From positions 1 through 64,000 of the IMG/VR virus record IMGVR_UViG_3300035695_000002: a stretch of 64,000 nucleotides of DNA. One strand, written 5' to 3'. The notes below the pieces were generated by a model. It was not told the DNA's origin. It saw only the letters and a program-made list of their open reading frames with translations, and did no database searches. A program made the translations under genes and the position numbers. Below, one piece after another: positions 42,584 through 57,893 of the stretch; position 1 is the first letter of the stretch, and the number at the start of each line of letters is the position of its first letter. The DNA is from a virus.

Positions 42584-43254
42584 ATGTAAAATTAGTAAGT
42601 GTAACAAAATCATTAATTGAAGGAAAAGAACTAACAGCAGAAGAACTTCTAGTGTATATAGCAAGAGTATCAAATCCTTCAAATCAGATGAATACTGAGA
42701 CTTCTGATAAATTGATTGGTTATTTGATTAAGAATAAGCACTGGAGTCCTTTTGATATGATTAACCTAACAGTAGAAGTAACCACTAGTAAAGCTGTAGG
42801 TATTCAAATCTTGCGTCATTGGAGTATAAAACCACAAGAATTCAGTCAAAGGTATGCTGAAGTAGTGGATATTGAGCCAATTGAGCTTAGAAAACAAGGA
42901 GCTACAAATAGACAAGTAGGAGATGAAGTATTCGATCCTGTTCTTGAGTTAGCTGATGTAGAAACAAATGAGCCACAAAAAGCAAGTAATGTAATAAATG
43001 TTTATTTAAGTTATAGCAAAATGGTTTATCAATCTCTGTTAAAAGCAGGTGTGGCTAAAGAATGTGCTAGAATGATACTTCCTATGGCTACAAGTACAAC
43101 ATTATACTTGAATGGTAGTGTTAGAAGCTGGATACATTATTTAGAGCAACGCACTAGTCAACATGCTCAAAAGGAACATAGGGATGTGGCTAAATTAATA
43201 GAAAACATATTTAAACAACAGTTTCCAGCCACTGTAAAAGCTTTGAATTTATGA
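42580..43254 (+). CDS. thyX: FAD-dependent thymidylate synthase
   Basis: ARVS, HWSPF, RH-x7-S (RHWSIKPQEFSQRY), EHR. Confidence 0.95.
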   Translation: MNVKLVSVTKSLIEGKELTAEELLVYIARVSNPSNQMNTETSDKLIGYLIKNKHWSPFDMINLTVEVTTSKAVGIQILRHWSIKPQEFSQRYAEVVDIEPIELRKQGATNRQVGDEVFDPVLELADVETNEPQKASNVINVYLSYSKMVYQSLLKAGVAKECARMILPMATSTTLYLNGSVRSWIHYLEQRTSQHAQKEHRDVAKLIENIFKQQFPATVKALNL

Positions 43255-44048
43255 AAGAACAAGGACAGCGTTTTAATGAGGGGAAATTGAGGTATGATCT
43301 ATTGGAACCATATGCTATTGAGCAATTAGTGAAAATATTCACTATGGGTAGTAAAAAGTATGCTCCCCACAATTGGATGAAAGGGCTTCCTTGGATGGAT
43401 GTTATTTCCTCTTTAGAAAGACATTTGGCAGAATTCAAGAAAGGGGAAGACTTTGACAAAGAAAGTCAATTATTACACATGGCTCATTGTGCGTGGAATG
43501 CATTGGCTATTGTTAGCTATTATAAATATAGACCAGAATTTGATAATAGACAACATATGTATTTAAAAAGACCTAAAATAGGACTTGATATAGATGATGT
43601 TATCTGTGACTTTTTAGGAGGATATTGTGATAAATTTGGTGTAAATGAATGTAAACACTGGTATTCTCATTATGATACAGGAAAACATTTAGAAGAAGCT
43701 ATTAAAAACAGTGATTTCTATTTAGGATTGAAACCTAGGATTAAACCAGAGGATATTCCTTTTGAGCCTCATTGCTATATCACCTCTCGTAGTATCCCTG
43801 TAGAATGGACAGAAAAATGGATACAGGATAATGGATTTGCTACTAAAAAGGTGTATACTATACCGTTTGGAGCTTCTAAAGTGGAAATAGCCAAACAAGC
43901 AGGAATTGATATATTTGTTGATGACAGATATGAAAATTTCGTAGAATTAAATAATGCTGGTATTTGTACCTTCTTAATGGATGCTCCTCATAACAAAAAA
44001 TACGATGTCGGATATAAGAGGATTTATTCATTAAAAGAATTAGTATAA
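43251..44048 (+). CDS. dATP/dGTP diphosphohydrolase (DUF5664-like) fused to HAD 5'-nucleotidase-like domain
   Basis: GK.RYDL, G..KY..HNW.KG, RH, D.ES.L.HMAH; then DIDDV, ITSR, FVDD. Confidence 0.85.
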   Translation: MKEQGQRFNEGKLRYDLLEPYAIEQLVKIFTMGSKKYAPHNWMKGLPWMDVISSLERHLAEFKKGEDFDKESQLLHMAHCAWNALAIVSYYKYRPEFDNRQHMYLKRPKIGLDIDDVICDFLGGYCDKFGVNECKHWYSHYDTGKHLEEAIKNSDFYLGLKPRIKPEDIPFEPHCYITSRSIPVEWTEKWIQDNGFATKKVYTIPFGASKVEIAKQAGIDIFVDDRYENFVELNNAGICTFLMDAPHNKKYDVGYKRIYSLKELV

Positions 44049-47982: not shown

Positions 47983-48270
47983 ATGAAAATACTAGGAAAT
48001 AGGGTGTATTTAAATCTTCCTAAGATAGAGGAGAGTAAATTTAGCATATCTGATGAGCTTAAAAAGGAGCTGCGAGAAAAAGAGATTCAGAAATTTGATA
48101 AACTTACAGTGTATGCTGTGGGAGAAGGTATTCCTGGAATTACAATAAGTGTAAAAGTAGGGGATAAAGTATTTGCAGATCCAGTTGCTATACGTAGAGG
48201 AACCATCTTAAAAATAGAGGATAAGGAATTAATTTGTGTTAATTCTCAAGATATAATGCATGTATGGTAA
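47983..48270 (+). CDS. groES: GroES/Cpn10-like co-chaperonin
   Basis: LGNRV, V.AVGEG, VKVGDKV, DI. Confidence 0.75.
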   Translation: MKILGNRVYLNLPKIEESKFSISDELKKELREKEIQKFDKLTVYAVGEGIPGITISVKVGDKVFADPVAIRRGTILKIEDKELICVNSQDIMHVW

Positions 48271-49022
48271 GTTGGAAATGTACAACAATGGGAAGAGTGT
48301 CAACATTAGAGGAGACACTCTTCTCTTTTTTAAATCAGAGTGATTTAAATGACTGTGAAATGGTGATAGTTAATGACTATCCCTTACAAAACCTTATATT
48401 CAATCATCCCCAAGTAAGGATATTCAATATTAAGGAGCCGTTTAAAACTATTGGTGAAAAGGAGAATTTTGCTATAGAACAGTGTAAAGGGGATATTATA
48501 GCTGTTACAGATGACGATGATGTGTATTTATCCAATCACAATACTAATATAAGGAAGTATTTTACTCCAGAGAGCAGTGTATTACATTGGGATGGAGTAT
48601 ACTATAATGAGCCTGAAATCACATCTCTTGTATTTATAGGGAATTCAGGTATGGTGTATAGTAAAAGAGCTTGGGAAGAGGTGGGAAAATGTCCCATAAT
48701 GAATGCTGGAGGAGATACAACATTTGCTGACAGTATTCATAAATTACACAAATGGACACACGGAAAACCTCCTAGAGGAGAAGAGAGTGCATTTTACAGA
48801 TGGAGTCTTCCAGGTGGGGGCGGTATATATCATCAATCAGGGGCTGGTTTTGATGTAGAGGGAAAGCCTAATATCATCCAGAGACACAGTGCTCATGTAG
48901 AACATCTTAGAAGACTAGGACTTATTCCTACAGGGGATATTGTTCTAAAACCAAATTGGAAGTATGATTATGAACAATTATTAAAAGACTATGTTTCTAG
49001 AGATATTGCTACCAACGTATAA
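48264..49022 (+). CDS. GT2-family glycosyltransferase
   Basis: EMVIVND, IGEK.N, GDIIAVTDDDD. Confidence 0.85.
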   Translation: MVSWKCTTMGRVSTLEETLFSFLNQSDLNDCEMVIVNDYPLQNLIFNHPQVRIFNIKEPFKTIGEKENFAIEQCKGDIIAVTDDDDVYLSNHNTNIRKYFTPESSVLHWDGVYYNEPEITSLVFIGNSGMVYSKRAWEEVGKCPIMNAGGDTTFADSIHKLHKWTHGKPPRGEESAFYRWSLPGGGGIYHQSGAGFDVEGKPNIIQRHSAHVEHLRRLGLIPTGDIVLKPNWKYDYEQLLKDYVSRDIATNV

Positions 49023-49566
49023 TCGCATAAATGAGCTTAAAATGAGCCTTTCCTCATTAATGTGTCAATCTGATGAAGATTGGAAAGCTACTGTTATATT
49101 AGACCATCCCGAACAAGGAGATAGGGCTAAACTACTCAATGTTATACATTCCTTTTATGACGATAGAATTAATTATTTTATCACTCATAGACGATTTAAT
49201 GATTGGGGTCACTCTTTAAGAGAGGCTGGAAAACAAGCAAGTGAAGCAGAATATCTTATAATGACAGGAGACGACAATTATTACACTCCTCATCTTGTAA
49301 AAGAGCTTAAATTAGCTACTACTTCTAAGCCTGGAATGGTATATTGGGATATGGTGCATAGTCATTTTAACTATTCCTATTTTAAATGTTCTCCTGCACA
49401 TGGATATATAGATATGGGAGCCTTTGCTACAAGAACTGATTTAGCCAAACAAATACCTCTAACTACTAATTATGCAGCAGATGGAGATTTTATAGAAGAT
49501 TTCAAGAAAAAGTTCCCTAATGAACAAATAATTAAGATAAATAAGGTTTTATTTGTTCACAACTAG
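48991..49566 (+). CDS. GT2-family glycosyltransferase
   Basis: LPTYNR, WGH, TGDDNYY, IDMG, ADG. Confidence 0.88.
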   Translation: MFLEILLPTYNRINELKMSLSSLMCQSDEDWKATVILDHPEQGDRAKLLNVIHSFYDDRINYFITHRRFNDWGHSLREAGKQASEAEYLIMTGDDNYYTPHLVKELKLATTSKPGMVYWDMVHSHFNYSYFKCSPAHGYIDMGAFATRTDLAKQIPLTTNYAADGDFIEDFKKKFPNEQIIKINKVLFVHN

Positions 49567-49663
49567 CCCTTTTTTGAAATATTCTCTATCCATTGTCCTA
49601 TTTTGAATAGAACAGAGACAATAACAATACTCAATATAGCAGCTATTATTATCATTTAGACAT

Positions 49664-49694
49664 AAAAAAAGCTCTGTAGAAATACAGAGCTTTT
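49664..49694. terminator. Bidirectional terminator between convergent blocks
   Basis: A7-GCTCTGTA-gaaa-TACAGAGC-T4. Confidence 0.85.
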
Positions 49695-49708
49695 AGTTTG
49701 CAAGGAGG

Positions 49709-49846
49709 TTATTTAGATGTTCTTTTTGACTTCATTGGCCACATAGGACTTTTAAGTCGTAATTTTGTATCAGCTTCCTTCATATAATTGTCCTTTGGAT
49801 GAGGATTCTTTACTTTGGGAGCTTTTTTTGGTTTTCCTGATTTCAT
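49709..49846 (-). CDS. Small basic protein (45 aa)
   Basis: MKSGKPKKAPKVKNPHPKDNYMKEAD... Confidence 0.65.
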   Translation of the reverse strand: MKSGKPKKAPKVKNPHPKDNYMKEADTKLRLKSPMWPMKSKRTSK

Positions 49847-50031
49847 ATTCCTTTTTTATATTTCTTTATTGGTGTTACTTGTCCTAATACACGTTTTTGA
49901 TAATCAATCCAATTATCGTAGTTTCCAGCTTTACTCACCTTTCTCCAAGCATTTGTTGTAACACTTGTAGAAAGTGGACTGAATGCTTTTGGTGTCTGAT
50001 TTCCATGAAATTTGGACTGTTTCTTTGCCAT
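49843..50031 (-). CDS. Small basic protein
   Basis: Lys-rich ORF coupled to neighbour. Confidence 0.65.
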   Translation of the reverse strand: MAKKQSKFHGNQTPKAFSPLSTSVTTNAWRKVSKAGNYDNWIDYQKRVLGQVTPIKKYKKGI

Positions 50032-50032
50032 A

Positions 50033-50326
50033 TTATTTTTTAACTTCTTCTTTTGATTCTACCGCTATTCCTGCTTCTACAGCCCTAGCTAGAGTGGTTT
50101 CCATAATATCATTGGCCCTTTCTGCTAACATTATTACACGGGCTTCAGGAGTGCTTAAAACACTTCTAAGAGAATGTAGCAATATACCAAAATCATTTCC
50201 TGGAATATAGAAAACATCTGTAGGTTTCCATTTATATTGCTTACTAGGATCATATTCTATCCTAGTTTCTGCTTTTCCTACCAAAGGTTCTTTTTTTACC
50301 TCTTTATCATCTCTTACAATTTCCAT
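50033..50326 (-). CDS. Conserved hypothetical protein
   Basis: YDPSK.Y.W; preceded by promoter. Confidence 0.75.
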   Translation of the reverse strand: MEIVRDDKEVKKEPLVGKAETRIEYDPSKQYKWKPTDVFYIPGNDFGILLHSLRSVLSTPEARVIMLAERANDIMETTLARAVEAGIAVESKEEVKK

Positions 50327-50347
50327 ATTAATTGGTTTAAATTTCTA

Positions 50348-50379
50348 CAAAGATAAAAGGAGTTTTTTATAAATGCAAG
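50348..50379 (-). promoter_or_regulatory. Bacteroidota promoter
   Basis: Minus strand CTTG-N20-TATCTTTG. Confidence 0.8.
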
Positions 50380-50667
50380 TTATTCTGTAGAAATTTCGAA
50401 TGAAATGGTTCCTCCACTAGATTTAATCGACTTAGAGAGATCTAAATGTATATGAAAACGATTATTAAGCTTTAATATTTCCTCTAGAAGGAGATTTGTA
50501 TATTGAGGGGTTGATGGGGCTATTCTAAAGTTATAAGCTTTCGGAAGCCTTTTTACCTCTAAAGAACATAATTCATCCACTGATTCTAATACTCCCGATA
50601 AGAGGGTGAGATAAAGCTCTTCGTTATCTGGAATTATTGGGAAATCTCCTACTATCTGAACTTCCAT
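50380..50667 (-). CDS. Hypothetical protein
   Basis: ORF in late operon. Confidence 0.7.
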   Translation of the reverse strand: MEVQIVGDFPIIPDNEELYLTLLSGVLESVDELCSLEVKRLPKAYNFRIAPSTPQYTNLLLEEILKLNNRFHIHLDLSKSIKSSGGTISFEISTE

Positions 50668-51075
50668 TTACTCCTGTGTTAATAAATACAAAGTGAGAGC
50701 ACATTTAGCACTCAGTTTTTGACTATTTAGTTCTACACCACAATACATCTTATCTTCTCCAAATTCATATACAGCATGGCTATATTCTTCTAATGCTTTC
50801 ACTGTTTCTATAGCTGTTGCTTTTGAGGAAGGGGATTCTGTTTTAAATCCCTCTATAGTTTTCCCTTCATATCCCATTAATTGCTCTATAATTACATCAG
50901 TTTTTCCTACTAAATAATCATATAAATTTCCTAATGCAATATGCTGCGAATTATTCTTAGTTTTCCAATGAATGAGCTTAATCTGGGCCTGAAAAGTGTG
51001 CAATTTACTTGCAATAGACTCCAATGTAAAATTTTCTTCTTTGGGTTTAACCATTCTTTCTGGAAATATAGCCAT
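50668..51075 (-). CDS. Ferritin/Dps-like protein (DUF5856-like)
   Basis: LIHW.T, H.ALG.LYD, D.IIEQ.MG, YLLT. Confidence 0.75.
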   Translation of the reverse strand: MAIFPERMVKPKEENFTLESIASKLHTFQAQIKLIHWKTKNNSQHIALGNLYDYLVGKTDVIIEQLMGYEGKTIEGFKTESPSSKATAIETVKALEEYSHAVYEFGEDKMYCGVELNSQKLSAKCALTLYLLTQE

Positions 51076-51076
51076 A

Positions 51077-53020
51077 TCAATCAATTATTTCAAATTTTGG
51101 CAAACATACAATAAATTTCCCTTCATATCCTACATCTTTGGCTCTTTTTATAAGTTCTTCCTTGAAGTTTTCAGCAAGTATTACTAGATAATCAGGAGGA
51201 GTTTTTTGTAAATATCTCTTATGTACAATAGGAATTCCTGTACCAGGACTAAATTTCCCTATTTTTTCACTTGTTTCATCTATAATGACATCCATTATAT
51301 CTGTTGTAACATTACAAGCATTTAGAAGAGTGTTGCCTTTAGCACTTGCACCAAAACCGGACAGTTTATATCCCTTTTTCTTTAAGTTTAAAAGGTTTTC
51401 CCCTATAGAGGATATGCTGTCCTTTACCTTAGATTGCCATTTAGAATATAGTTCTAAGGAGGTATATCCTTTTTCATCCTCATTTTTTATGAATTCATGA
51501 ACAGAAGGAGAAACATCGTATCTGGATTCCTGTTTAGCTATTGTAATTCTTATTGTTCCTCCGTGTATATTATGCTTACTCACATCTATAATTTTCATTC
51601 CTAAAGTATCACATAGACTATTAATTGGAGAAATGGAAATATGAGATAAATGTTCGAAATAACATTGGTTCCATTCATTCTCCTCTATAAAGTCTCTAAG
51701 ATAAGGACATTCTATTATTAATATTCCATTAGGAGACAGAACATTTTTAGCTGTCTGTATAAACTCATTAATATTATCAATGTGAGCGAAGACATTGGTT
51801 GCAGAAATTAATTGAGCATTTCCGTATTTGCTAATAATTTCTATTCCTGTTTTTCTACTCCAAAAATCAGCAATTGTAGGAACTCCTATAGATTCTGCAA
51901 TAGCAGCTAGATTCTCAGCAGGATCTACCCCTAACACTTTAATTCCTATTTCTTCCTTAAACTCTTTTAAAAGAGATCCGTCATTAGAGGCTATATCTAT
52001 ATGGAAACTAGAAGATGACAGATGGTATTTTTCCCTTAAATCTTTAGCCATCTTTCTACAATGCTGTAAATATGGTTTATTTACAGAAGATCTATATGTA
52101 TAATAACTATACATCTCCTTAGGATCAATTACTACAGAAAGTTGTGTCAGAAAACACTGCTCACAAACCATCACTTGTAAAGGAAATCTTTGCTTATTTC
52201 TAGCTAATTTAGAAGAAGTTTCCAAGTTGTTGGACAGGGGCATGAGACCTAAATCTAAATATTTAGTTAGTTTTGTAGAATTACATGCTCTACAATGTGT
52301 ATGAGATTTGGCTATTGGGGAATTTGACTTATAATCTATCCATTTCTGGAGATTGAGAGAGGTATCGTAAGGAGTATTAAAACTTGTTTCTGATAGTTTT
52401 ATAGGAGAAACATCAGGATTGCGCTCTTTAGCATAAGAAAATAAAGTTTTTCTCTCTGTACCTAGATTTAATATCCCTATTAATGGACTTATTGAAGCTT
52501 CGTATATTAATGGGGCTATTTTGTCCACATAATCCTTAGAAGCCCATTTATCAATAAATGCTACAGAATAAGAAAATTCATTCTTTCCAAAGGATGTACG
52601 TATAATTAAATGGTTTTTTACAGCATTTACAGAGGCTTCTCCTCCCACTTTAGTCCAAGTATAGAGATTGAAAGGTAGAATAGGATCAGATTCCTTACAG
52701 TTTCCGTGATTTCCTTGATAAACATAGTCAGTGGATAAATATACAAGCCTAATGTCATATTTGGAGCATATAATAGACAGGTTTGCAGCCCCTATTATAT
52801 TAGTTTCAATGGCTTCTCTAGGATTGGTTTCAATAGCTCTATTATCGATTATAGCAGCACTATTTATAATTATATCTGGAGTATGTAGTTTAATAAACTC
52901 TTCAACCTGGCTTAAATTTCGTATATCCACATCATTTTTAGAAGGACATATTAAATTTCCATCAATTTTCTGTAATTCCTTCCCTAATGTCCCATTTCCT
53001 CCAAAAACTACTATTTTCAT
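51077..53020 (-). CDS. Fusion: RmlD-like NDP-4-keto-sugar reductase + NDP-hexose C3-methyltransferase
   Basis: N-term GGNGTLG, STDYVY, YxxxK; C-term CRAC, LDLG..PL.N, CEQC, DIASNDG, NVFAH, YFEH, HGG, GASAKG. Confidence 0.9.
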   Translation of the reverse strand: MKIVVFGGNGTLGKELQKIDGNLICPSKNDVDIRNLSQVEEFIKLHTPDIIINSAAIIDNRAIETNPREAIETNIIGAANLSIICSKYDIRLVYLSTDYVYQGNHGNCKESDPILPFNLYTWTKVGGEASVNAVKNHLIIRTSFGKNEFSYSVAFIDKWASKDYVDKIAPLIYEASISPLIGILNLGTERKTLFSYAKERNPDVSPIKLSETSFNTPYDTSLNLQKWIDYKSNSPIAKSHTHCRACNSTKLTKYLDLGLMPLSNNLETSSKLARNKQRFPLQVMVCEQCFLTQLSVVIDPKEMYSYYTYRSSVNKPYLQHCRKMAKDLREKYHLSSSSFHIDIASNDGSLLKEFKEEIGIKVLGVDPAENLAAIAESIGVPTIADFWSRKTGIEIISKYGNAQLISATNVFAHIDNINEFIQTAKNVLSPNGILIIECPYLRDFIEENEWNQCYFEHLSHISISPINSLCDTLGMKIIDVSKHNIHGGTIRITIAKQESRYDVSPSVHEFIKNEDEKGYTSLELYSKWQSKVKDSISSIGENLLNLKKKGYKLSGFGASAKGNTLLNACNVTTDIMDVIIDETSEKIGKFSPGTGIPIVHKRYLQKTPPDYLVILAENFKEELIKRAKDVGYEGKFIVCLPKFEIID

Positions 53021-53026
53021 ATTGGT

Positions 53027-54376
53027 TTAATTATGATTTACAAGGCATCCATTTACCTTCTTCCATCTATCCTCTCCATATTTGTCTATTATTCTTTTAA
53101 AATAAGTCCAATCACTACTATGTGACATATCTCCCCATCCACTACCTACAGCCACATCTTTTCTAATAATAACACAGGCAGAGTCTATATATCCTAATTT
53201 AAGCCTTGTATCAATGATTCCGTATTTATATACTTCCCAATTTATACCATTACAAGTTCTTTGATTATTTTCAATTATTGTAGTTTTCTGCCAACTATCA
53301 TAAGAATGGACAAATTGGCTGCAATAGGAGGCCAAAATATAAGGATTTTCAAACCCTTTTAATAAAAACTCACAAAAATGAGGAGAATGAAAATTGTCCC
53401 CGTTCGTTATACATACAAAGGATGTATTAGGAGAGAGAATTTCTAGATTATCTAAAGCAAACTGACGAATAGGATGGCCCCATTGTTGCTTCCTTTCCTC
53501 TGTTTCTATAAATTTAATTCTTTTGTCATTAATAACATCTATCACTTTTCTTAACCCTGTAGAATTTGGACCATCATGTATTAATAAAAGTTCCCAATTC
53601 TTATAAGTTTGATTAATTAAACTACTTACAATTTCTGGAAAAGTGTCAAAAATAGGGCAAATAAATGTAATTTTGTTCTCTTCTGAAGGGGGATTTAGGT
53701 CTATAACAATAGGAAGTTCTGGAAATATTTCTTTATGTTCTTTTTCCCTTCTTTTAAATCTTAATTTTCCATATATACCATCATGTCCTGAGTCCCATAG
53801 AGGGGAGGTTTCTATATTATCTACCTGAGCTATTCTACCTATCTTGACTATTTGCTCAAATAATGTAACTGTCTTACTCTTCCTTTTATGCTCAAATTCA
53901 TAACATTCTTCTTTATTTGTTATAATAGGAACAGCAAATGTAATATTAACTAAATCTCTTTTTCTAAGCATAAATCCTGTAGTACGTATATGTTGAGTTA
54001 CTTCTTGACTCAATTCATAACATACACAGGATACATCTTCCTTAAAGGGATATAGAAACCTTTGTATAAACTCCTTATTCATAGGGAGTAAATCGTCTGT
54101 ACACCATAAGAGATAGTCAAATTCTGTAGGAAACCCATCCAATCTTCCTCTACATACATCTTGAAAAGCCCCTATATCAAATCCTATATTAACTCTGGGA
54201 ACATATGTGATATTATTCTTTTTGCACAATTTTTCATATTCATTCTTATCGTTAATATTAACATAATTATGAATAATAACTAATTGGGCATCTGTAGTGT
54301 TACATTGATTCCAACATCTTATCCATTCCTGAACATTATTAAGTCTATTATGTACAATAACAGAAACAACCACCAT
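53027..54376 (-). CDS. Two-domain glycosyltransferase (GT-A + GT2)
   Basis: N-domain NIGFDIGAF, TDD; C-domain QTY.NWEL..IHDG, WGH.IR, NGDN, YID. Confidence 0.85.
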   Translation of the reverse strand: MVVVSVIVHNRLNNVQEWIRCWNQCNTTDAQLVIIHNYVNINDKNEYEKLCKKNNITYVPRVNIGFDIGAFQDVCRGRLDGFPTEFDYLLWCTDDLLPMNKEFIQRFLYPFKEDVSCVCYELSQEVTQHIRTTGFMLRKRDLVNITFAVPIITNKEECYEFEHKRKSKTVTLFEQIVKIGRIAQVDNIETSPLWDSGHDGIYGKLRFKRREKEHKEIFPELPIVIDLNPPSEENKITFICPIFDTFPEIVSSLINQTYKNWELLLIHDGPNSTGLRKVIDVINDKRIKFIETEERKQQWGHPIRQFALDNLEILSPNTSFVCITNGDNFHSPHFCEFLLKGFENPYILASYCSQFVHSYDSWQKTTIIENNQRTCNGINWEVYKYGIIDTRLKLGYIDSACVIIRKDVAVGSGWGDMSHSSDWTYFKRIIDKYGEDRWKKVNGCLVNHN

Positions 54377-54411
54377 AAAATGTAGTTAGATTGGTTTAGA
54401 ACAAAGAAATA

Positions 54412-54588
54412 TTAAGGATGGGAGGTAGTTGTAGTCAAAGGATCACAACAAGTGTATCCTTGTATCTGTCTCCATTTACCCACCTTGGGCATCTTTAATC
54501 TTCCAATTAAGGAACCAGCTACATCTCTGCCACTACCATCGATTCTCACATAGAAATTAAGTACTCTCTTGTCTACGCTATTTGCCAT
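54412..54588 (-). CDS. Small protein with Thr-rich tail (58 aa, below track cutoff)
   Basis: MANSVDKRVLNFYVRIDGSGRDVAGSLIGRLKMPKVGKWRQIQGYTCCDPLTTTTSHP. Confidence 0.75.
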   Translation of the reverse strand: MANSVDKRVLNFYVRIDGSGRDVAGSLIGRLKMPKVGKWRQIQGYTCCDPLTTTTSHP

Positions 54589-54589
54589 T

Positions 54590-55246
54590 TTAATTTAAAT
54601 TTATATTATTTATAATCGAATTATCTTTCTTTACATAAGACCACATATATCCGTTTCTAGGTTTTCTTATATTATTACACCATTTACCTATCGCCTCATG
54701 ACTGTATCCTTCAATTCTTTCGGCCTCCATCGCAGATGAATAGGTTTTAATAAGGTTGTAATCATTATCATATTTATATACTTTCTTACTATTAGGATTC
54801 TCATATCCTTTTTTGTATTTTTCTTTCTGAACCTTACTTAAATATTCTTTTCTGATTTCTGAAAATTTAACACCTTTTCTTGTTGTAAATCTTTTAACGT
54901 TGCCTTGAATATTTAATACATTATATCCATTTTTCAGATATTCAAGAATCAGTTCTTTTTCTCTAATTCTAGCTTCTTCTATATTCTTATATTTTTCTTT
55001 TTCCAACACTCTAAACAATACCTTTTTCTTTTGAATTTTGATTACATCATTCATCCATACATATATTGGGTAATGACTCATTTTTCCTTTTCTTGTATCC
55101 CTAGAGTGAGTCCATGCTCTCCCCATAAAATCTTCTGTTATCCCTATATACACAGATTTATCTTTTATATCTTCTGAATACAGTATATATGTGCTATAGG
55201 GGTTTTCGGGGTAATCTAAATTTACTAATCCATTATATTCCTTCAT
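54590..55246 (-). CDS. GIY-YIG homing endonuclease with NUMOD1-like C-terminus
   Basis: TYIL..VYIGIT, E..LI..Y, LN; KVYKYD..LIKTY.SA.EA. Confidence 0.8.
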   Translation of the reverse strand: MKEYNGLVNLDYPENPYSTYILYSEDIKDKSVYIGITEDFMGRAWTHSRDTRKGKMSHYPIYVWMNDVIKIQKKKVLFRVLEKEKYKNIEEARIREKELILEYLKNGYNVLNIQGNVKRFTTRKGVKFSEIRKEYLSKVQKEKYKKGYENPNSKKVYKYDNDYNLIKTYSSAMEAERIEGYSHEAIGKWCNNIRKPRNGYMWSYVKKDNSIINNINLN

Positions 55247-56253
55247 AGGTTATATTTCTGTTTTAATTCAATCATTTTCGATACATAGTACCAATTACAG
55301 AGAGTTTTAGACTGTTCATTATTATACACCAGTTCTAAATGAGAGTCCTCAAAAGGATTAGCTCCCATGTGATATTTTCCTTTATAAAAAACAGGAATTT
55401 CTCCTTGTTTCTCTCCTACAATTCCTGCATTATGAAATATAGGACATGTTTCTAATTTAGAAATAGGATCACTGCTCCATGCAAAGTTAAGTTCTTCTAC
55501 TATTCTAGTTTCCTGATTTCTGTCCCATAATCCCCATAGCACAGCCCACATATCAGCACACCAGCTTTGAAACCCTTTATTTTCATTTTCAAAGAAGTAT
55601 TTATTTATTTCCTGGAGATATTGTCTGATTTTGATAGAATCTGTTATTATTTTGTCCCAAAATTGCCAATCTATATTTTTTAACAGATATTGTGCCCCTC
55701 CCGAATTCAAATTATTCTTTTCTGCTATTTCTCTGGAAACTCCTACTAGTTTACAAGCCTCATTTAATATATCCCTAGTTTTATATTGCTCTAGTTTCTC
55801 CGGAATAACATCCTTTATTTTACTATCAAAATAAGAAGCATTTATATAACTTAATGTATTTGAGAGATAACAGACATCATCATTTAAGAACTTATCAATA
55901 TTAAATTTTTCTGTGAAAAGAACATCACAATCACTATAAAATACAGCTTTTTCCTTTAATTCTGGATGTAATTTGAAATATTTCATAAGAATATACGGTC
56001 TTATAAGAGGTATGTATATTCCTAAGAGTTTAGTTATATTGTCTGTATCTTTGTAAAAGAAAAATTCAGATTCTGGGTATAATTCTTTTAATTTATCCCA
56101 TTTAGGGTTTCTATCTCTATAATTAGGGGTAAATATTAGAGAGACAGCTTTATTTGACTTTCCTATTGATTTTAGGCTTTCCAACCATAAATGGGTTTGC
56201 CACCAGTAGTAATCATCACAAGGGGCACATTGCATAAATACTAAATCTCTCAT
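55243..56253 (-). CDS. GT-A glycosyltransferase resembling HPAT/SGT1 (GT95/GT96) peptidyl O-glycosyltransferases
   Basis: YYWWQ near N-terminus, YIPLIRPY, DCD, GGAQY, WCADMWA, H near C-terminus. Confidence 0.65.
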   Translation of the reverse strand: MRDLVFMQCAPCDDYYWWQTHLWLESLKSIGKSNKAVSLIFTPNYRDRNPKWDKLKELYPESEFFFYKDTDNITKLLGIYIPLIRPYILMKYFKLHPELKEKAVFYSDCDVLFTEKFNIDKFLNDDVCYLSNTLSYINASYFDSKIKDVIPEKLEQYKTRDILNEACKLVGVSREIAEKNNLNSGGAQYLLKNIDWQFWDKIITDSIKIRQYLQEINKYFFENENKGFQSWCADMWAVLWGLWDRNQETRIVEELNFAWSSDPISKLETCPIFHNAGIVGEKQGEIPVFYKGKYHMGANPFEDSHLELVYNNEQSKTLCNWYYVSKMIELKQKYNL

Positions 56254-56280
56254 GTAATTATTGGTTTTTACTTAAATTTG

Positions 56281-56385
56281 CTATTTTGTAGAAAGAATCT
56301 TTGTCAAAGTCTCAATTTGCATTGATATTCTCTGTAACCATTTCACTTTTCTACTAGATCCTATTTGTTGATTTTGTGTAGCCAT
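56281..56385 (-). CDS. 34-aa mini-protein homologous to fibre N-terminal anchor
   Basis: MATQNQQIGSSRKVKWLQRISMQIETLTKILSTK vs MSVPNRQIG..WLSFISKQMERLTQV. Confidence 0.65.
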   Translation of the reverse strand: MATQNQQIGSSRKVKWLQRISMQIETLTKILSTK

Positions 56386-56387
56386 AA

Positions 56388-57893
56388 TTAATCGTTTGTT
56401 GTTTTAGCAGTTAAGAAATATGTAGTTCCTCCTATATTTACAGTGATGGTTCTATTTTGCGCTGTTGGAGAAACAACATTTACAGCACTTTCTGTTATAA
56501 CTCCTTCTCTAGTGGTTCCTGTTCTTGTAAAGAATAAATTAGTTCCATCATATTCCATACATCCAGCCACTGCTGTTGTTAAATTGGTTCCGGAAGTAAA
56601 CTTTAAAGGAGCTAATATTGTTGTTCCTGCTCCTATTACAGCTAGTGCATTTGCTGGCGTTGCTCCTGCTCCTAAACTTGTGATTCCTCGTCTAACTAAA
56701 AGACCGTACTCAATACCAACAACTGCTATAATAGCAGGATTAATATCTAAATATGTGATAGATCCATTTGATCCACCTGTTTGATTTATTGCGGTTGTTA
56801 TTGATACAGCAGTAAATGCTGCAGTACCAGAAGCAGGGCTAAAAAATCCAGCGAAAGATGAACCTGTGATTGCTCCAGAAGTTGGAGTTACTGTATTTCC
56901 TGGGTTAATAGTAATACCGATCCCACTAGTAGCATTCCATGTACTGGGTTGATTAATAATAAACCCTGTATTTACTTGTATTTGATTTGCTACAGCGCTA
57001 GATCCGTTTAGAGTTATACCCCCAACATTACCTAATCCGGCAGCATCATTTATTTTTAATCCGTGAGCTTGAGTTAGTAATATTGCTCCATCTGATGCCA
57101 GTGTCAATCCTCCATTTGTAGAACTACCAGCAACCTTAGATTGAAATATTAAATTAGTAGTAGGGTTTGCAGATCCTTGAACCGGAAGATTATAAATTTG
57201 CCATAATGTTTGAACACTTGCTGTTCCTGTTGTTTTCCACCCCTGACCCTCAAATGTTATTATAGGAGAAATCTGTTGAGCACCTGCTGCTGCTGCTGTG
57301 GAATTTGAAAACCATAAGCCAGCACCATCTACTACAGTAGTTCCTAAAGAAGCAAAGGAATATTTTATAATATTAGTTGTTGTACCTACTATTGTATTTG
57401 GTCCAGATAATGTTCCTCCAGAAGCTAAAAGCCAAGAAAGTCCTGTAGATTGTTTACCATTAAATGTATTCCAATCGGCAGAGGATAAATATCCATTAGT
57501 TGATGTAGTAGCTTGAATAACTTGAATAGTAGTATTTGCTAATAAAGTACTAGATCCTGTTATAGTAAGAACTGCTGAAGTAGCCTCTGTCAAATTACCA
57601 GCAGCAGTGTATGAAGGAGCAGCAGATCCTCCTGTATTATTACCAAACCATGTGTGTGCTCCAGCATTAGACAATGAGAAAGATAGAGATGGAGTAGTGG
57701 TGGGAGTGCCTACAGAAGTAGTAAATAAAGGAGATAGATTTCCACTAGAAAAAGAAGAAACTGTACCTCCTCCACCACCACCTGATATATTAGAAGCTAC
57801 TTGTGTCAACCTTTCCATCTGTTTAGAGATGAAAGATAACCAATATTCTTCTGGTGCTGATTCTGCTCCTATTTGTCTATTAGGTACGGACAT
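56388..57893 (-). CDS. Virion fibre protein (Ser/Thr/Gly-rich)
   Basis: Short anchor, poly-Gly linker, NGYLSSADWNTFNGKQ fibre repeat, beta-rich body. Confidence 0.75.
   Translation of the reverse strand: MSVPNRQIGAESAPEEYWLSFISKQMERLTQVASNISGGGGGGTVSSFSSGNLSPLFTTSVGTPTTTPSLSFSLSNAGAHTWFGNNTGGSAAPSYTAAGNLTEATSAVLTITGSSTLLANTTIQVIQATTSTNGYLSSADWNTFNGKQSTGLSWLLASGGTLSGPNTIVGTTTNIIKYSFASLGTTVVDGAGLWFSNSTAAAAGAQQISPIITFEGQGWKTTGTASVQTLWQIYNLPVQGSANPTTNLIFQSKVAGSSTNGGLTLASDGAILLTQAHGLKINDAAGLGNVGGITLNGSSAVANQIQVNTGFIINQPSTWNATSGIGITINPGNTVTPTSGAITGSSFAGFFSPASGTAAFTAVSITTAINQTGGSNGSITYLDINPAIIAVVGIEYGLLVRRGITSLGAGATPANALAVIGAGTTILAPLKFTSGTNLTTAVAGCMEYDGTNLFFTRTGTTREGVITESAVNVVSPTAQNRTITVNIGGTTYFLTAKTTND

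Follow-up and report, generated by a model that had tools for sequence, protein, structure and literature searches.

What would a phage do with four glycosyltransferase genes, and on what would their products act? The question is raised by the first 64 kb (64,000 nucleotides, called the window here) of IMG/VR virus record IMGVR_UViG_3300035695_000002, a 120,724-bp sequence with direct terminal repeats. A cluster in the window holds four glycosyltransferase genes with five GT-A domains (GT2a at 48264, GT2b at 48991, the two-domain 53027, and 55243), a fused sugar reductase/C-methyltransferase gene (51077) and, among them, the gene of a 58-aa protein with a threonine-rich end, CCDPLTTTTSHP. A first-pass annotation had described these parts from the letters alone. 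All are present where it had placed them; Pfam, AlphaFold models and fold matches agree on the transferases, and Pfam finds RmlD_sub_bind and then Methyltransf_13/23/14 in the fusion. The observation is real and far beyond chance. Comparison with related and distant phages indicates that 55243 is most likely an O-glycosyltransferase for the poly-Thr tracts of virion proteins.

The 55243 protein matches no Pfam family at E<=10, and so falls outside Glyco_transf_8 (CAZy GT8); it also matches no NCBIfam model, and a sequence search of solved structures gave nothing at E<=10. Its residues 6-313 align with positions 3-279 of the 293 in the profile of phrog_4417 (E 2e-50), a PHROG whose function is unassigned, and an exhaustive search at E<=1e-3 found a family of 751 clusters at 50% identity. 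When 55243 was aligned with 48 of these clusters (alignment A1, 49 sequences), the DxD residues D108 and D110 and the residue H274 were invariant. The AlphaFold model (pLDDT 97.8, pTM 0.93) has the GT-A fold. Its top Foldseek matches are xyloside xylosyltransferase, glycogenin and alpha-1,3-galactosyltransferases, with modest TM scores of 0.37-0.49. VIA-align comparison of the model with 48,161 chains gave Z scores of 14.2 for Skp1 alpha-GalT, 14.1 for glycogenin and for the UGGT catalytic domain, 14.0 for LgtC, 13.8 for WbbM, 13.2 for GlyE, 13.1 for LARGE1 and 11.2 for PBCV-1 A64R; the alignments to GT8-type enzymes at Z ~14 cover 218-248 residues. Among these nearest folds are enzymes of cytoplasmic protein glycans (Skp1 alpha-GalT, glycogenin, and GlyE of serine-rich-repeat adhesin glycosylation). 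As modelled, 55243 is thus predicted to be a retaining, metal-dependent GT-A enzyme that is GT8-like and not GT8, with likeness at fold level only. We scanned 28 long members of the family: 16 have no further domain, and 12 carry additional GT2, GT6, GT7C, GT25, GT32-type, methyltransferase or radical SAM domains, some of these matches being weak.

Plant HPAT (GT95) and SGT1 (GT96) enzymes start O-glycans on peptide hydroxyls, and searches with the HPAT model do not bear out membership of 55243 in these families. The Pfam model HPAT (PF23452) is silent on 55243 at E<=10 and found no match in a six-frame search of the genome, the control genomes being likewise silent. The same model does match 2 of the 49 family members, at best E 0.012, and is found on 10% of one neighboring Atlas cluster. 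The likeness to HPAT and SGT1 consists of this faint signal and of the proposed job, the start of an O-glycan in a low-complexity tract; the difference is that 55243 itself has no HPAT match and that its best structural neighbors are GT8-type, in a comparison that held no solved GT95 or GT96 structures. Kinship to the plant enzymes is at most a faint lead and is not established.

A check proposed in the first-pass annotation was whether homologs of 55243 occur together with Thr-tailed proteins in crAss-like relatives. We ran it on the best 80 of 292 viral stretches (60-87% identity) and found the pairing in 79: a homolog of the 58-aa protein stands directly after the transferase, and the 80th locus ends just past the endonuclease gene, before that site. 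The 58-aa protein has no Pfam (E<=10) or PHROG family, and its Atlas search scores of 0.84-0.85 are at chance level. Its relatives often form two to four tandem paralogs and share an N-terminal module with the consensus LKAYVRFDGSGRIVAGSLILRxxKPKVGKWxEIxAYECC, followed by runs such as TTTTTTTAAPTTTTTTT. Among 103 distinct sequences of the family (alignment A2), 67 have a run of five or more Thr (T5+), and in 41 the module is followed by larger domains: BspA-type leucine-rich repeats (LRR) reaching 1292 aa, collagen repeats or a beta-propeller. The Cys-Cys pair immediately before the Thr run is near-invariant, being kept in 94 of the 103; a disulfide, a metal site or a modification site is conceivable.

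The Thr runs are concentrated about the transferase. A T5+ run occurs within 1.5 kb downstream of it in 66 of the 80 loci, and of all 279 such runs 177 lie in this interval, which is 10.5% of the bases, with another 87 within 3 kb upstream; none of the 279 is in an opposite-strand frame. Most of the upstream runs (53) lie less than 100 nt from the transferase start. These had been taken for the C-termini of fibers, a view that we rejected: they belong to a second, separate family of small proteins (...NLLWQISKQLExLIKVT...TTTTTTTAAP). The module of that family is matched by the N-terminus of the fiber protein next to 55243 in the window, in which GGGGGG stands at the place of the Thr run of the relatives. 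By their architecture, both modules look like docking domains with exchangeable distal parts, and the 58-aa protein is a candidate acceptor, or a minimal glycan-bearing stub. The complex of 55243 with the 58-aa protein, predicted from alignments A1 and A2, scored 0.01 against a mark of 0.32, the fold of the partner being uncertain.

Small tandem paralogs beside a transferase, with a conserved N-terminal module and a near-invariant Cys-Cys pair ahead of the Thr run, could also describe a glycopeptide natural product: the 58-aa family would then be glycocin-like precursors with a leader-like module, glycosylated on Cys or Thr by 55243 and released at lysis. We consider this very improbable. The paralogs bear the fiber- or adhesin-type C-terminal domains noted above, no leader peptidase or exporter gene lies nearby, and in other phages the partners of this enzyme family are capsid and tail-tube proteins.

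Those other phages come from a tblastn search with 55243, which found 77 records of isolated phages (23 of Lactobacillus, 21 of Enterococcus, 11 of Staphylococcus, 8 of Lactococcus, and others including Clostridium). Many of these are Firmicutes phages, and with a Chryseobacterium phage the family extends to phages of at least two bacterial phyla. The homolog adjoins a poly-Thr-bearing capsid, tail-tube or small protein in all nine named phages that we examined. It follows the major tail protein in Enterococcus phiFL1A (ending ...NGTTTTTSTTTTTTSSTTTTTTTQASSK) and in Lactococcus 1706 (ending ...GVTTTTTTTTTTHHD), and the Thr tract is on the tail tube protein in phiCTP1. In iLp84 the head and tail proteins both end ...TTTTTTTSK and a 125-aa poly-Thr protein is also present, while the protein upstream of the transferase in R3.3 ends ...TTTTTTKAPTTTTTSSHA. 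The neighbor is a 429-aa protein with TTTTTTSTTTTTTSSTTTTTT in Chryseobacterium MA9V-3, a 128-aa poly-Thr protein in Iacchus, and a 109-aa protein with T14 in Staphylococcus PT94. In Enterococcus 9183 the tract overlaps the end of the major head gene.

The last case merits a description of its own. In phage 9183 (NC_055907.1, 5728-5850) a startless frame of 40 codons (...RVEPTTTTSTTKATTTTTSTSTSTTTTTLAEG) shares the final 30 nt of the major head gene, read in the -1 frame, and sits just upstream of the 55243-family gene. This looks like a programmed -1 frameshift, which would give some of the capsid subunits a poly-Thr tail.

Throughout the phiFL1A genome, Thr-codon runs of the form (ACN)6 are limited to the 3' ends of the genes for the major head and major tail proteins, and phage 1706 has them where its protease/capsid gene ends, where its tail gene ends and in one other place. 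The depositor's annotation of phiFL1A, with 61 genes, has no glycosyltransferase other than the 55243 homolog; because this is the sole glycosyltransferase-like gene annotated there, the family is likely to be the priming enzyme. Thr runs were present in all 13 records that have a 55243-family enzyme (8 whole records and 5 loci of 12.8 kb), and an (ACN)6 run in none of 10 records without it; the Fisher p of 9e-7 has to be read with the reservation that the 23 records are not phylogenetically independent and that three of the negatives are only 54-64% complete, which lessens its force for the proposal. The cleanest test of co-presence is a matched set of phages with tail proteins 50-60% identical to that of phiFL1A. 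In Javan47, 315.6, phiJL-1 and ATCC8014, profile A1 detects no gene of the 55243 family (E<=0.001), (ACN)6 runs are absent throughout, and the tail protein lacks a terminal Thr run; in R3.3 the gene is present and the tail protein closes with ...VTTTTTTSHA. The Leptolyngbya phage Lbo-JY46 has neither the gene nor a Thr run. Three complete enzyme-bearing relatives have 5, 30 and 29 runs, all on one strand, and the genome of the window has 7.

In that genome, runs of at least four Thr are confined to proteins of the late strand (Table 1). They include, beside the 58-aa protein, a 106-aa protein, a fiber protein, a 220-aa protein, the crAss muzzle protein and a 385-aa protein of the structural block. 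The 106-aa open reading frame (ORF) lies under an over-long, TTG-start call of the fiber gene, whose start is more likely the Met at 64298.

The other enzymes of the cluster would act, if at all on this glycan, after the first sugar. Pfam detects only the C-terminal domain of 53027 (Glycos_transf_2, 36.0 bits, cut-off 23.3); two weak matches in the N-terminal half (E 0.13 and 0.16) were taken as chance. The AlphaFold model, built with 41 homologs (pLDDT 90.9), has both GT-A domains. VIA comparison of residues 233-449 gave Z of 21.0 for WrtF, 20.8 for SpsA and 19.3 for TarP, and that of residues 1-219 gave 12.9 for Manic Fringe and 12.7 for GnT-I. Over its whole length 53027 matches the two-domain enzymes K4CP (Z 16.6), CHSY3 (15.4), Mimivirus R699 (13.6) and LARGE1 (11.9), in alignments of high root-mean-square deviation and differing domain orientation. 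D94/D95 and D327 are invariant in the 41 sequences, as expected of a bifunctional enzyme with two GT-A domains, and full-length homologs number 555.

TylC3-type enzymes methylate C-3 of dTDP-4-keto-6-deoxyhexose. The C-terminal part of 51077 has the full length of such a 3-C-methyltransferase, with the two Zn-binding CxxC pairs (CRAC at 243, CEQC at 286); in searches of PDB sequences it matches the TylC3 D-mycarose 3-C-methyltransferase (4rv9, E 1e-75, residues 237-645) and TcaB9 (E 7e-53), and Pfam finds Methyltransf_13 (E 1.5e-18), Methyltransf_23 (E 1.4e-11) and Methyltransf_14 (E 1.4e-42), together at 243-641. The reductase part matches RmlD (3sc6, E 1e-16) and has the motifs GGNGTLG at 7, STD at 96 and YTWTK at 120; only residues 1-150 align to RmlD (RmlD_sub_bind), and TIGR01214 gives 106.9 bits against a cut-off of 224. 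Fusions of this kind are widespread in metagenomes. By analogy, 51077 is predicted to methylate and then to reduce, giving dTDP-3-C-methyl-6-deoxyhexose.

GT2a is a small soluble protein and a candidate chain extender; GT2b is considered accessory. Their NCBIfam matches (WcaA, TuaG, EpsE) are weak and all far below cut-off. Thirty-four of the related loci extend past the junction at which these genes lie, and there GT2a was found in 29 and GT2b in 7. Transferases of other types occupy the junction in relatives (GT2, GT6, GT11, GT25, GT32-type, Fringe-like and GT77-type), as do methyltransferases, hexapeptide acyltransferases, a DegT aminotransferase, homing endonucleases and unrelated genes. 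Such variation at one place fits a conserved primer with a diversifying glycan.

The same enzymes could be thought to alter the lipopolysaccharide (LPS), capsule or S-layer glycan of the host, blocking superinfection or re-adsorption of progeny, with the Thr-rich proteins as mere flexible linkers. Serotype-altering phage glycosyltransferases are well known, as described in excerpts of PMC12619734; homologs of the GT2 and RmlD/C-methyltransferase genes are typical of O-antigen and capsule loci, to which the sub-cut-off WcaA, TuaG and EpsE matches also point, and one fold match of the GT2 domain of 53027 is TarP, the wall-teichoic-acid transferase of a prophage. But Pfam found no flippase, polymerase, initiating phosphoglycosyl transferase or membrane-bound GtrA/B-type gene in the genome, and the four transferases match no membrane-protein family (a statement about family matches, made without transmembrane prediction). 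Nor does remodeling of the host surface explain why 55243 and poly-Thr are present and absent together, or why the gene lies inside the head and tail modules of small siphophages. As an account of the whole cluster we judge it improbable.

From the gene content, folds, family membership and co-occurrence observed, we infer the following route, in its acceptors, donor sugars, order of steps and sharing of one glycan. Soluble 55243 would act in the cytoplasm of the infected cell, with a host nucleotide sugar as donor, and would place sugars on Thr hydroxyls in the runs of late proteins, the candidate acceptors being the 58-aa, 106-aa and 220-aa proteins and the C-terminal part of the muzzle. The glycosylated proteins would then be assembled into the particle, giving it mucin-like tails or linkers. 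GT2a, GT2b, the two-domain transferase and the fused C-methyltransferase/4-ketoreductase probably lengthen and decorate the glycan, the fused enzyme converting dTDP-4-keto-6-deoxyhexose of the host to dTDP-3-C-methyl-6-deoxyhexose; because no genes for 2-deoxygenation or amination lie alongside 51077, the product would be the plain 3-C-methyl-6-deoxyhexose. The claim that 55243 primes Thr or Ser has gained for Thr: the pairing and co-presence with Thr runs (79 of 80 loci, nine of nine phages, 23 records) give the proposed priming step good support of a comparative-genomic kind. Extension and capping by the accessory enzymes are plausible. That virion O-glycosylation is the core and that the accessory enzymes tailor the same glycan is, taken as one reading, somewhat better than an even prospect.

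Several facts weigh against that reading. The phage's own 58-aa protein has only four Thr, the adjacent fiber has glycines in place of its relatives' threonines, and the best Thr tracts of the phage are 35-40 kb away from 55243. Membership of the 58-aa family in the virion is deduced from position and from paralogs with fiber-like domains, and the glycosylation claim as a whole is a comparative-genomic one. RmlA, RmlB and RmlC were not found in the genome by Pfam, so that the sugar precursor must come from the host. Finally, 53027 and 51077 form a cassette that is separable from 55243. A scan with the 53027 alignment gave 50 viral loci, 40 of them with a match of at least 34% identity (a single-sequence search with 51077 had given 2 loci only). 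The C-methyltransferase adjoins the two-domain transferase in 35 of these 40, as a mobile pair; only 2 of the 50, both crAss-like, also contain a relative of 55243; and in many small phages the cassette sits between replication or DNA-methylase genes and the terminase. Five other carrier records, three of them with an adjacent methyltransferase gene and two of them complete (54 and 35 kb), contain neither a 55243 relative nor an (ACN)6 run. Since it is found in phages without 55243 or poly-Thr, the cassette can act without a poly-Thr acceptor.

The separability of the cassette favors a split system, in which 55243 glycosylates poly-Thr while 53027 and 51077, perhaps with GT2a and GT2b, are an independent mobile cassette with another acceptor: other sites on virion proteins, a host envelope glycan, or a free polymer. 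The insertion site likewise hosts a homing endonuclease, and many unrelated genes in relatives, and K4CP, CHSY3 and LARGE1, matched by 53027 over its whole length, are polymerases that build repeating disaccharides. On the other side, the cassette is inserted between the 58-aa gene and DUF5856, on the strand of the transferase, at the same place in three crAss-like genomes (this one, L006/L095 and L107), the junction of relatives carries other glycan-tailoring genes, and some 55243-family proteins are fused to extender transferases and methyltransferases. We hold the split system to be unlikely on balance, while giving it real weight. Because the cassette also travels in phages without poly-Thr, its target in this phage may be something other than the poly-Thr glycan, for instance the host envelope. 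What this window adds is the branched-sugar cassette in the same place, with evidence that cassette and poly-Thr system can be parted.

The position of the cassette beside DNA methylase and replication genes in other phages brings in one further alternative, namely that the transferases glycosylate modified DNA bases against restriction. Virus glycosyltransferases of such a type are known (Pyle et al., 2024, listed in the references of PMC12619734), and the window has nucleotide-metabolism genes for ThyX, ribonucleotide reductase (RNR) and a MazZ-like domain. But the genome has no hydroxymethylase of the ThyA family, which a control search found in 10 of 14 reference genomes, and on this account DNA glycosylation is highly unlikely; Pfam found no other known base-modification gene in it. 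Besides, the fold of 55243 and its structural-gene context point to protein, and TylC3, TcaB9 and KijD1, the relatives of 51077, act on nucleotide sugars.

Returning to glycosylation of the virion, a more ambitious version, which we regard as doubtful, joins all the parts. The particle would bear a mucin-like coat on 'glyco-stub' proteins, each a 48-aa docking module with a Thr run; the coat would be primed by the 55243 family and elongated by the K4CP/LARGE-like 53027 into a repeating polymer containing phage-made 3-C-methyl-6-deoxyhexose, so that a virus would bear a matriglycan-like chain.

The closest published precedent is virion glycosylation in mycobacteriophages, whose own transferases glycosylate structural proteins in the cytoplasm (Freeman et al., 2023, as reported in excerpts of PMC12619734), with glycans at the C-termini of capsid and tail-tube subunits (same excerpts). 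This glycan site is where the Firmicutes relatives of 55243 have Thr tails, the comparison being on our side one of genes only. The enzyme family differs: a search of Che8 with profile A1 is empty at E<=1, and the 77 homolog records include none from a Mycobacterium phage. The acceptors differ also, in that ...NKTGS and ...YSDGS, with no Thr run, are the ends of the capsid and tail proteins of Che8 and that the candidates here include dedicated mini-proteins and fiber linkers. The principle is common to both systems, the enzyme and acceptor are not.

Streptococcal serine-rich-repeat adhesins are exported proteins glycosylated by a GT-B priming pair, GtfA/B, and then by GlyE, GlyD and others. 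The likeness lies in cytoplasmic soluble enzymes that act on low-complexity tracts of hydroxy amino acids, with extension by accessory GT-A enzymes, of which GlyE is among the fold neighbors of 55243; the primer there is GT-B and the substrates are Ser-rich exported adhesins, in contrast to pure Thr runs of phage proteins. Giant viruses glycosylate themselves, with A64R acting on the major capsid protein in PBCV-1, and R699 and fibril glycans in Mimivirus. They resemble the present case in soluble GT-A machinery and in unusual sugars that are partly made by the virus (R699 aligns over residues 1-449 of 53027), but they infect eukaryotes, carry N-linked or fibril glycans and have no poly-Thr acceptor, and at 9-10% identity the likeness does not go beyond the fold. 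To the branched-sugar pathways of antibiotics (TylC3, TcaB9, KijD1) the C-terminal 400 aa of 51077 are related as a full-length member with the CxxC pairs, and the 4-ketoreductase step is one that this chemistry leads one to expect. In the producers that step has a separate enzyme; in the phage gene the reductase is fused ahead of the methyltransferase, and it is RmlD-like, short (~235 aa) and below the NCBIfam RmlD cut-off.

Full-text literature searches turned up neither the 55243 family nor poly-Thr-tailed phage proteins nor glycosylation in crAss-like phages, and a survey of low-complexity regions mentions poly-Thr in passing only. As far as the literature found goes (PMC12619734, in excerpt), mycobacteriophages are the phages for which experiments show glycosylated particles. 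If the proposal is true, a single unannotated family marks sugar-coated virions in crAss-like, Enterococcus, Lactobacillus, Lactococcus, Staphylococcus and Clostridium phages. A coat of this kind would matter for the stability of the phages, for their adsorption, for binding to mucus and for recognition by antibodies, as well as for therapy and dairy phages; a simple poly-Thr tag with a small soluble enzyme could serve as a tool for glyco-tagging in the cytoplasm; and the cassette, which is specific to this window, would be a rare case of a phage-made branched-chain deoxysugar.

The genome in which the cluster lies had been guessed to be that of a crAss-like phage, and Pfam places it in Crassvirales: beyond the window are Crass_capsid (E 1.6e-23) and crAss_MUZ (E 4e-41) proteins, with the tail ring proteins Ring_1 (E 1e-9), Ring_2 (E 5e-17) and Ring_3_4 (E 3e-6, just under its cut-off). 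A Megablast search with the cluster matched no isolated phage. The one isolated-phage relative of the capsid protein is that of the cyanobacterial phage Lbo-JY46, at 25% identity; because this sole relative comes from a Leptolyngbya phage, the host of this crAss-like group is not established, and we make no claim of Bacteroidota.

The cluster is not part of a single late operon, as had been supposed, and sits at the ends of two convergent ones. Genes on the + strand, from 337 to 49566, have replication and nucleotide functions (ThyX, class II RNR, RecA, a Cpn10-like protein) and terminate with 48264 and 48991; those on the - strand, from 117912 down to 49709, encode structural proteins, lysis proteins and fibers and terminate with 55243, 54590, 54412, 53027, 51077 and four small genes. 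Between the two lies a terminator-like hairpin, the one site observed in a search for which shuffles gave 0.2 expected.

Table 1. Features of the cluster and Thr-bearing proteins elsewhere in the same genome (T4 to T7, runs of that many Thr)
Feature	Position	Strand	Description
GT2a, 252 aa, small soluble	48264..49022	+	Pfam Glycos_transf_2 E 1e-8, 35.7 bits (cut-off 23.3); DDD at residue 83
GT2b, 191 aa, accessory	48991..49566	+	Pfam Glycos_transf_2 E 3e-7, 30.9 bits (cut-off 23.3)
Palindromic hairpin between convergent operons	49667..49694	.	A and T runs on flanks; terminator-like
Three conserved neighbor genes	50033..51084	-	DUF5856 50668-51084; 95-aa gene 50380-50667; 97-aa gene 50033-50326
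Reductase/C-methyltransferase fusion, 647 aa	51077..53020	-	RmlD-like ~1-235; NDP-hexose 3-C-methyltransferase ~237-645
Two-domain transferase, 449 aa	53027..54376	-	N-terminal GT-A domain 1-219; GT2-type C-terminal domain 233-449
58-aa protein	54412..54588	-	48-aa N-terminal module ending Cys-Cys, then TTTTSHP tail (T4); ends CCDPLTTTTSHP
GIY-YIG homing endonuclease	54590..55246	-	inside cluster; Pfam GIY-YIG E 3e-6
55243 transferase, 336 aa	55243..56253	-	phrog_4417; predicted GT8-like retaining GT-A; DxD at D108/D110
Ser/Thr/Gly-rich fiber protein	56388..57893	-	N-terminus EEYWLSFISKQMERLTQV matches module of second small family
Fiber protein	62934-64454	late strand	T4 near C-terminus
106-aa ORF	64301-64621 (genome)	-	ends STTTTTTTHP; just past window end
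220-aa protein	90433-91095	late strand	T6, T7
crAss muzzle protein (Pfam)	91108-95991	late strand	T7, T5, T4; candidate acceptor in its C-terminal part
385-aa structural-block protein		late strand	ends ...TTTSTTTTVWPTTSTTSTLTP

The homing endonuclease between the transferase and the 58-aa gene is a mobile insert, and it occupies that site in only 7 of the 80 related loci. Other genes of the cluster range widely in frequency among these loci, with homologs of GT2a in 33, of GT2b in 7 and of the reductase/C-methyltransferase in 1. The three conserved neighbors are frequent companions of the transferase: the Dps-like DUF5856 gene (Pfam E 1.5e-11; phrog_858 E 2e-12) accompanies it in 78 loci, the 95-aa gene in 74 and the 97-aa gene in 69, the last two proteins having no Pfam match at E<=10. 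They are given as context only and are not tied to glycosylation.

Farther from the cluster, Pfam recognizes a MazZ-like dATP/dGTP diphosphohydrolase domain (E 2e-30) at the N-terminus of a 265-aa protein (window 43251-44048). Its gene adjoins those for ThyX and the B12-dependent ribonucleotide reductase, and the Pfam scan found no PurZ-like gene. In the late block (genome 70746-82838 and 64689-70283), a 4030-aa ORF that has no Pfam match adjoins a 1864-aa protein with a histidine-phosphatase domain, and a CAAX-protease-like protein of 151 aa lies beside the two.

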